From positions 1 to 40,702 of the IMG/VR virus record IMGVR_UViG_2923350032_000005: DNA of 40,702 nucleotides; one strand, written 5' to 3'. This stretch comes from a virus. Taxonomy: Duplodnaviria > Heunggongvirae > Uroviricota > Caudoviricetes. Made by a program: the position numbers and the translations under genes. This document shows, in pieces, positions 1,788 to 2,737 of the stretch. Each line of letters begins with the position of its first letter. Positions within the stretch are counted from its first letter, which is position 1. Under the pieces are notes generated by a model. It was not told the DNA's origin. It worked only from the letters and a program-made list of their open reading frames with translations, and did not search any database.

Positions 1788-1963
1788 AATCATCAAACGA
1801 AACATAAAATTAATTCACATTATGAGGAAAAGTATCTTTTTTGTACTATGTAAATTCAAAGACTTAGCCTCATTTCCCCGATGGTTTTCTCAACACTACT
1901 GGTTGTGAGCCCTTGCAATGTTCATTAATATACGTCTCACAAATAATTCATAGATATTGCAAA

Positions 1964-2737
1964 ATGGATATTACTGAGTTTCCTTCTGGAGTAATTGAAC
2001 ACCTTGGCTGGTATGTATACCGATTGATTGATCCGAGGGACGGAAGCACCTTCTATGTAGGGAAAGGCAAAGGTAACCGCGTATTTGCCCATATGCGCGG
2101 TGAAGTGGCAGCGACTGATGATGACGAGTTACTGAGCAACAAGCTAAAGCAAATTAGAGAAATAAGGTTAGCAGGACTTGAGGTTATCCATGTCATCCAT
2201 CGACACGGAATGACTGATGAAAAGACGGCGTACGAAGTCGAAGCAGCACTTATTGATGCCTACCCTGGGTTAACGAATATCATGAATGGTGCTGGCAGCA
2301 ATGAATTCGGCGCCGCGCATGTCAAAGAGTTGATAGCAACATATCAACCCGAAACCATAACATTTCATCATAAAGCATTAATGATTTCCGTTAACAGAAG
2401 TGCAAAGGATTCAGAGCTTTATGATGCGGTTCGATTTAGCTGGCGCATTAATGTCTCTCGCGCCAGCCAAGCAGAAGTCATTCTTGCTACTGTAAGGGGG
2501 ATCGTTCGAGGGGTTTTCATTGCTGATAAATGGCTCAAATCAACACGTGAAAATTTCCCTACGATGAAATACTGGGACGAGGATCCGGACTTTGAGGCAA
2601 CACAAAGTTCTCGCTATGGTTTTGAAGGTCGAGAAGCCCCACCTGAAATAGCAAATCTTTATCTTGGAAAAAAAATACCAGATGAATTAAGAAAAAAAGG
2701 AGCTATGTCCCCGGTCCGTTACTCACCTAATTTTTGA
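1964..2737 (+). CDS. GIY-YIG nuclease-domain protein with an uncharacterised ~150-aa C-terminal region (prophage-end cargo gene)
   Basis: ORF track 1913..2737 starts at TTG; first ATG is at 1964 (MDITEF...). N-terminus [30 protein letters not shown] ... YEVEAALI ... TNIMNG fits the GIY / YIG / Arg / Glu / Asn pattern of GIY-YIG nucleases. Lies immediately beyond the invertase gene. Confidence 0.65.

Follow-up and report, generated by a model that had tools for sequence, protein, structure and literature searches.

An Escherichia coli prophage gene beside the tail-fibre invertase very probably encodes a CMoRE (PD-T4-3) nuclease directed at hydroxymethylated phage DNA

The window analyzed here is a 40,702-nucleotide (nt) stretch of tailed-phage DNA (IMG/VR record IMGVR_UViG_2923350032_000005, positions 1 to 40,702), and the gene under study lies near its left end, next to the invertase gene pinE. 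It is very probably a prophage-carried copy of CMoRE, also called PD-T4-3, a nuclease defence that would destroy phage DNA containing 5-hydroxymethylcytosine (5hmC) or glucosyl-5hmC (5ghmC). This system is already known, both by name and in its mechanism. An earlier note made from the sequence alone had offered single-gene nuclease defence, anti-defence and homing as candidate functions. The defence reading is supported, because an enzyme 98.4% identical to the product has been shown to act in this way by genetics, biochemistry, and crystallography. Anti-defence is rejected on the published biochemistry and on the absence of any feature that would support it.

The open reading frame list placed the gene at 1913..2737 on the plus strand, with 274 amino acids (aa) counted from a mechanical TTG start. 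RefSeq annotates a coding sequence with its ATG at 1964 at the same coordinates in the chromosome of E. coli HB-Coli0, which matches the window across this region with 100% identity. All 33 of the 33 aligned homologues start near the Met encoded at 1964, the enterobacterial members at the same MDIxEFP, and this Met is also the first residue of the crystallized PDB constructs. The agreement of these starts sets the true start at ATG 1964, and the resulting 257-aa protein has the length that the earlier note had estimated while giving the TTG position. The PADLOC model PD-T4-3 (PDLC04031) matches residues 1–256 along its 256-position profile (E = 2.4e-140, 464 bits), and PHROG 5356 matches the protein over its full length. 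A PDB sequence search matched only two sequences, those of E. coli O157:H7 (9U75/9U8D, deposited as 'PD-T4-3'; E = 3.7e-172 over residues 1–257) and of APEC O1 (9U7U/9U7Z; E = 1.1e-150). The window protein is identical to O157:H7 CMoRE at 253 of 257 positions, the only differences being four conservative substitutions (T51A, E55D, Q169K, and N197H), and is 85.2% identical to the APEC O1 enzyme. A copy with 100% identity to the window gene is found in some O157:H7 genomes. In length, GIYxY-YIG motif, acidic lid, sensor domain, and single-gene organization, it is essentially the same protein as CMoRE/PD-T4-3 of E. coli ECOR68, O157:H7, and APEC O1. NCBIfam gave no match. Homologues at E ≤ 1e-5 fall into 6,562 protein clusters, and the exact sequence lies within a 90% cluster of 1,045 sequences; the reading frame is therefore not a chance one.

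PD-T4-3 was renamed CMoRE by Liu et al. 2026, the source of the 9U75, 9U8D, 9U7U, and 9U7Z structures (PMC12923530). The name PD-T4-3 does not occur in the text of Vassallo et al. 2022. Under its native promoter, O157:H7 CMoRE lowers the plating of T2, T4, and T6 by ~10^5-fold, and the protection is not abortive (PMC12923530). T4 with unmodified cytosine, T4(C), escapes, whereas the non-glucosylated T4(hmC) is still restricted (PMC12923530). The purified enzyme binds and cuts only DNA with 5hmC or glucosyl-5hmC; two modified cytosines are required, and the cut at CN11/N9G leaves 2-nt 3' overhangs (PMC12923530). The crystal structures show a GIY-YIG domain at the N terminus that has an additional tyrosine (GIYxY-YIG; Y17, Y19, and Y31), and mutants of these three tyrosines in the O157:H7 enzyme lose both defence and nuclease activity (PMC12923530). 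A 15-residue acidic loop covers the active site, and its 4A mutant acts on unmodified DNA and is toxic (PMC12923530). The C-terminal domain binds 5hm-dCTP, with Y127's main-chain oxygen bonded to the 5-hydroxyl of 5hmC (PMC12923530). The tetramer is needed for defence, and both V92S/L96S and deletion of the β1-β2 loop abolish protection (PMC12923530). Deletion of PD-T4-3 in E. coli NILS69 sensitized the strain to Tevenvirinae, which shows that a chromosomal copy is active natively (10.1101/2024.12.20.629700).

Every published functional residue is kept in the window allele: Y17, Y19, Y31, R80, V92, L96, Y127, and the acidic lid. The β1-β2 loop is identical to that of the O157:H7 protein. The GIY-YIG signature that had been read from the N terminus is confirmed by Pfam LEM-3_GIY-YIG (PF22945; E = 2.1e-14, 54 bits against a cutoff of 27, residues 28–110). 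A GIY-YIG fold is also found on structure prediction; after CMoRE itself, the next-best PDB matches of the N-domain by Foldseek are UvrC GIY-YIG domains. The CMoRE authors likewise report the UvrC GIY-YIG domain as the closest fold (PMC12923530). All 34 homologues, with identities as low as 53%, have Y17, Y19, Y31, R39, E93, and N105 unchanged. This invariance, together with what is known of the GIY-YIG family, points to R39, E93, and N105 as the catalytic Arg, the Glu, and the metal-binding Asn. The lid residues read DDDE in the window allele versus DDDD in O157:H7 CMoRE, and E55 retains the charge. Residues 106–115 are the sole segment of the AlphaFold model with a predicted local distance difference test score (pLDDT) below 50, and this linker has no electron density in either of the crystal structures (PMC12923530).

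The mechanism proposed for the window allele is carried over from the 98.4%-identical O157:H7 enzyme. The protein would form a tetramer, a dimer of dimers, whose C-terminal domains would bind DNA with 5hmC or glucosyl-5hmC and not DNA with cytosine or 5-methylcytosine (5mC). One dimer would read two modified cytosines ~21 bp apart, and the N-terminal GIY-YIG domains would cut between them (CN11/N9G) to leave the 2-nt 3' overhangs. The acidic loop D52-D53-D54-E55 over the active site would repel unmodified host DNA by charge, and tightly bound modified DNA would outcompete this loop. The outcome would be the direct, non-abortive degradation of incoming T-even-type genomes, protecting both lysogen and prophage. 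Cleavage dependent on 5hmC or 5ghmC and protection from T-even phages are thus predicted for the window allele by its sequence, and the allele is presumably expressed from its own upstream region and active in its host strain.

Several points weigh against this reading. The protein that was tested differs from the window allele by the four substitutions. One of the four, E55D, sits in the regulatory loop, although the charge is retained. The text of the CMoRE paper gives no numbers for the catalytic Arg and Glu, and the R39/E93 numbering is our inference. Consensus scans of the plus strand found no σ70 match at 9/12 and no terminator for the gene. The APEC O1 homologue is weak under its own native promoter (PMC12923530), and native activity can therefore vary between strains.

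The last point also bears on the possibility that the gene is silent or irrelevant in its host strain, a decaying passenger. Its surroundings are mosaic, with an IS3 (insertion sequence) fragment, a displaced piece of the serU locus and frameshifted tail-fibre copies, and at one related locus (L002) the reading frame is a variant of 255 aa with no gene call. The window reading frame itself is intact and identical to the 1,045-sequence cluster. Of 5,426 complete E. coli genomes, 838 (~15%) carry the gene at ≥95% nt identity, and the protein is identical at 255–257 of 257 positions in 9 of 10 other contexts. Its transcription has been detected in strain IAI46, where it responds to pH, and the native copy in NILS69 is active, as noted above. 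A silent passenger is therefore highly improbable. By eye, a candidate promoter with 8/12 consensus positions (TTGTGA-17 nt-TAATAT, 1903–1931) may lie within the 177 nt upstream of the gene. This upstream region is 93–100% identical in ten other contexts, including O157:H7.

A second alternative is that the specificity is broader and extends to other hypermodifications, such as the carbamoylmethyl-adenine made by Mu Mom or arabinosyl-hmC, so that the enzyme would also act on Mu-like phages or other mobile elements. The Capnocytophaga homologue PD-T4-3Capno, 48% identical, acts as a modification-dependent nuclease; it degrades Mu DNA as well and protects against Mu (PMC12366544). E. coli CMoRE is mildly active on the arabinosylated-hmC phages Bas46/47, and its ligand sits on an open edge instead of in a closed pocket (PMC12923530). 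However, the Bas46/47 effect was very mild, and the O157:H7 enzyme restricted only T-even phages and cut only 5hmC or 5ghmC DNA (PMC12923530). Among 93 phages tested in NILS69 and K-12, only Tevenvirinae were affected by PD-T4-3 (10.1101/2024.12.20.629700). We consider a broader range unlikely, though it is the most plausible of the alternatives.

A third alternative is homing: the gene would encode a free-standing GIY-YIG endonuclease of the I-TevI/Seg type and would spread into cognate prophage alleles lacking it. The protein has a weak PHROG match to a 'homing endonuclease' family (E = 0.002), and the gene sits at a mosaic junction. In addition, full-length relatives with 38–45% identity over 97–99% of the protein occur in lytic jumbo phages (Serratia phages Moabite and 2050HW, Pseudomonas phage OBP, and Klebsiella phage N1M2), where they are labelled 'putative homing nuclease'. 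These labels are automatic names and not the result of tests. The 98%-identical protein cuts according to base modification with no strict sequence target and depletes the whole T4 genome (PMC12923530). I-TevI is only a weak fold match of the N-domain by Foldseek, and the C-terminal domain is a modified-base sensor and not an I-TevI-type DNA-binding module. The gene stands free at the prophage end with no intron or intein context. Homing, which the earlier note had also entertained, is rejected on these grounds as extremely improbable. The jumbo-phage proteins are more likely CMoRE-type enzymes than homing nucleases, and they may serve phage-phage competition against co-infecting hmC phages.

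The C-terminal region of ~150 aa had been called unassigned. This holds for family databases, because Pfam finds nothing there at E ≤ 10 in the window protein or in any of the 34 homologues, but it does not hold for the literature, which assigns the region experimentally as the 5hmC/5ghmC sensor. The CMoRE paper describes the domain as having no sequence or structural homologue (PMC12923530). Across the 34 family members the only recurring Pfam family at E ≤ 10 is GIY-YIG, hence there is no match to a PUA-clan profile. A family profile searched against all PDB sequences returned only CMoRE itself. Fold comparison with the C-terminal domain gave scores of 5.8 for ASCH (5guq), 5.5 for AF2351 (2kku) and for YTHDC1, 5.3 for the EVE protein PH1033 (1wmm), and 5.2 each for the YTH-like N-domain of S. 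marinus McrB (6n0s), THYN1 bound to 5mC DNA (5j3e), and VcaM4I, a 5hmC-dependent EVE-HNH enzyme (6yex). The N-domain of T. gammatolerans McrB (6p0g) scored 3.7 and the SRA domain of ScoMcrA (5zmn) scored 3.0. Foldseek with the full-length model independently returned VcaM4I, YTH, and ASCH. With no sequence-level link from Pfam or the PDB profile, the idea of a PUA-like sensor comes solely from fold comparison. In a comparison with viral models, the sensor aligned with the C-terminal half of A0A8S5N646, which is named as a PD-(D/E)XK nuclease (E = 2e-9, 24% identity); this match suggests a portable sensor module. EVE-GIY-YIG fusions are on record as putative type IV enzymes.

Several known systems are close to CMoRE. 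PvuRts1I and AbaSI share its substrate class (5hmC and glucosyl-5hmC, not cytosine or 5mC) and its two-domain logic of nuclease plus reader. The geometry of PvuRts1I is also nearly identical, with modified cytosines ~21–22 bp apart, a cut between them, and 2-nt 3' overhangs. PUA-like reader/nuclease fusions, such as the EVE-HNH enzymes VcaM4I and TspA15I, EVE-GIY-YIG proteins, and YTH-like McrB N-domains, are likewise among the closest. Eco29kI, Hpy188I, and the N-terminal domain of UvrC have in common with CMoRE the catalytic fold and the Tyr/Arg/Glu/Asn active-site logic. Unlike CMoRE, they are sequence- or lesion-specific and not modification-dependent, and they lack the extra tyrosine of GIYxY, the 15-residue acidic lid, and the sensor domain. 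McrA (EcoKMcrA) of e14 resembles CMoRE in being a single-gene type IV nuclease for modified cytosine that is encoded directly after pinE at a prophage end. The two proteins are not homologous: McrA has an HNH nuclease and a different N-terminal reader where CMoRE has GIY-YIG, and mcrA is co-directional with pinE whereas the CMoRE gene is convergent with it. The target of McrA is 5mC or 5hmC in a sequence context rather than glucosylated hmC.

The position after the invertase had been described as a cargo slot, and its contents do vary among related prophages. The gene after pinE in K-12 e14 is mcrA, which also encodes a type IV nuclease. In SfIV, the interval from the tail fibre to attP/int holds gtrA-gtrB-gtrIV, the gtr serotype-conversion cassette. 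One prophage with a diverged pin ends directly at the host gene pphA with the slot empty, and another has a 46-aa membrane protein there. In E. coli 23CRST009 the slot is occupied by the gene for WP_040091219.1, a hypothetical protein of 215 aa, which like CMoRE is convergent with pinE (L015:2773-3420; NZ_AP045766.1 1235092-1235739). It has no Pfam or PADLOC match and is a candidate defence gene, given that the slot elsewhere holds McrA or CMoRE. The invertase of P2-like phages lies within the tail cluster. Taken jointly, two proposals seem to us about evenly poised between right and wrong: that the sensor is a highly diverged PUA-like portable reader of the ASCH/EVE/YTH type, and that the interval between invertase and attP in SfV/e14-like prophages is a recurrent home of type IV restriction. 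Neither point is made in the CMoRE literature consulted; the CMoRE paper does not discuss the post-invertase thrW prophage context, and the word 'prophage' is absent from it (PMC12923530). If correct, a PUA-like sensor would put CMoRE among the mainstream reader-nuclease type IV enzymes and not in a new fold class, and it would bear on the evolution of 5hmC-specific readers and on the engineering of CMoRE as a 5hmC-mapping reagent.

On contigs that encode exactly the Pin protein of the window, CMoRE is almost always adjacent, as a called 257-aa gene in 9 of 10 places; the tenth is L002. A full-length pin homologue is present in 1,381 of the 5,426 complete E. coli genomes. The organization is that of a single gene, because the gene and its 177-nt upstream region are constant and its neighbours vary with context. 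Beyond CMoRE lies an AraC gene (the window and O157:H7), a Dcm-like methylase with EcoRII next to smpB, FlxA, or integrases. Where prophages at different chromosomal sites are compared, their homology sets in at ~1762–1766, within the serU fragment. This boundary, the conserved 177 nt, and the differing distal genes indicate that pin and CMoRE with its own upstream region form a mobile block, and the region distal to the block is a second variable zone. CMoRE may travel with pin and a relic serU-type att core, at times stacked with Dcm and EcoRII genes. Five loci (L003, L004, L006, L007, and L008, at ~6790–9480, in prophages by smpB/ssrA) have genes for a Dcm-like C5 methyltransferase and an EcoRII-type endonuclease after CMoRE, and the three make up a small defence cluster at the end of the prophage. 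Because CMoRE is indifferent to 5mC, it would be compatible with the neighbouring Dcm-like methylase. Since the window gene belongs to a solved and named defence system, no discovery is at stake. It serves as a positive control, in that a defence nuclease was recognized without tools from slot position and motif. The remaining value is the context map, with a pin and CMoRE block that is mobile and occurs in ~15% of complete E. coli genomes, and with a variable slot where McrA and uncharacterized genes are also found. The 215-aa occupant in 23CRST009 is a better lead for novelty than the CMoRE gene.

In RefSeq the window is E. coli DNA between paoD and proA, with the prophage integrase and an intact thrW at the far end (Table 1). 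A 64-nt direct repeat of the 3' part of thrW lies at L001:1578-1641, ~360–420 nt to the left of window position 1, and its position defines an att-bounded element of ~39.6 kb. The gene is inside this element because the only thrW att duplicate lies further out, and a location outside the prophage is rejected for the same reason, yet this end is mosaic, as the serU junction shows. The description of the site as the prophage end is accurate with one nuance. Between the att duplicate and the gene are ~2.3 kb that hold the IS3 fragment, the AraC-family gene, and the serU fragment. The morphogenesis genes are 97–98% identical to those of the Shigella serotype-converting phages SfIV, SfII, SfI, and SfV, and many prophage genes carry e14-type names in RefSeq (ymfQ, ymfR, ymfL, stfP, and pinE). 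The window pinE is 93% identical to e14 pinE at the nt level. CMoRE is separated from pinE by a 60-nt gap, and both pinE and the late operon are encoded on the other strand. The view that it is transcribed on its own, away from the late operon, is correct in substance given the opposite strand, but loosely worded, because the gene reads toward pinE. Its guanine-plus-cytosine (GC) content (~0.39–0.45) is lower than that of the baseplate genes (0.53–0.62).

The serU piece consists of 277 nt of the yodB-serU spacer (1444–1720) and the 3' 66 nt of tRNA-Ser(CGA) (1721–1786, tRNA sense on the minus strand). It matches K-12 positions 2,043,190–2,043,533 with 97.7% identity over 344 nt, and the 97 nt nearest the gene are 100% identical. 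Other contexts retain only ~22 nt of it, corresponding to the anticodon stem-loop. The piece resembles the remnant of an att junction, left beside CMoRE by an ancestor that integrated at serU. If so, CMoRE would adjoin an (ancestral) attP, the classic moron position, and the thrW-integrated element would be a recombinant. Weak Rfam matches at 1725–1803 (tRNA-Sec and a plastid untranslated region) are explained by the serU fragment. An Rfam CssrB match at 2761–2820 was rejected as far below threshold.

Table 1. Coordinates of the CMoRE gene, its parts, the surrounding prophage features, and two jumbo-phage homologues. Positions refer to the window unless an accession is given.
Feature	Position	Strand	Basis
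Truncated IS3-family transposase fragment	1-354	+	
AraC-family regulator gene, low GC, outside the CMoRE block	396..1139	-	Pfam HTH_AraC, HTH_18
Displaced serU locus piece, att-type junction abutting the CMoRE block	1444-1787	.	K-12 alignment
Upstream region travelling with the gene, 177 nt	1787..1963	+	Conserved across contexts; promoter presumed within
CMoRE/PD-T4-3 coding sequence, 257 aa + stop	1964..2737	+	PADLOC, PHROG 5356, PDB 9u75, RefSeq coding sequence
GIY-YIG N-terminal domain	1964..2278	+	Pfam PF22945, invariant residues, Foldseek
GIYxY-YIG tyrosines Y17, Y19, Y31	2012-2014, 2018-2020, 2054-2056	+	Residue alignment
R39, E93, N105	2078-2080, 2240-2242, 2276-2278	+	Invariance among homologues
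Acidic autoinhibitory lid D52-D53-D54-E55, in inserted loop	2117..2128	+	Reads gat gat gac gag
Flexible inter-domain linker, aa 106-115	2279..2308	+	AlphaFold pLDDT, crystal density
C-terminal modification-sensing domain, ~aa 116-257, including Y127 (2342-2344)	2309..2734	+	
pinE, serine DNA invertase of the tail-fibre segment, convergent with CMoRE	2798..3352	-	RefSeq; Pfam Resolvase, HTH_7
Invertible tail-fibre segment	3416..5170	.	19-nt inverted repeats 3416-3434 / 5152-5170
Prophage integrase, tyrosine type, far end of prophage	38126-39244	+	RefSeq
Intact tRNA-Thr(CGU) thrW, next to integrase	39259-39334	-	ARAGORN, RefSeq
CMoRE homologue, Serratia phage Moabite	NC_048792.1 6406-7161		
CMoRE homologue, Pseudomonas phage OBP	NC_016571.1 158703-159449		

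The AraC-family gene is absent from the ssrA-linked and other contexts that retain pin and CMoRE. A role as a dedicated CMoRE regulator was considered and rejected, because the serU piece lies between the two genes and CMoRE is found without AraC elsewhere. O157:H7 (L013) has the same IS3-AraC-CMoRE-pinE arrangement beside a different integrase and an ABC-three-component system. The repeat search for the invertible segment returned a single inverted pair, 95% complementary, that encloses oppositely oriented tail-fibre and assembly genes. The plus-strand alternative tail-fibre and assembly copies (3382–4476 and 4448–5456) are frameshifted in the identical RefSeq genome, and one orientation of the switch may be non-functional.

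Two further genes lie elsewhere in the prophage. An N6-adenine DNA methyltransferase without a partner nuclease is encoded at 29042–29695 on the minus strand (PADLOC MTase_II, full length, E = 5e-158); this orphan methylase of the early region is probably an anti-restriction function. A 296-aa protein with a C-terminal BRCT domain is encoded at 33099–33989 on the minus strand, where its gene is convergent with the prophage repressor gene and overlaps its 3' end. A BRCT domain is unusual for a prophage immunity region; the protein has a weak partial PADLOC match to the candidate system PDC-S48 (E = 2.4e-7).

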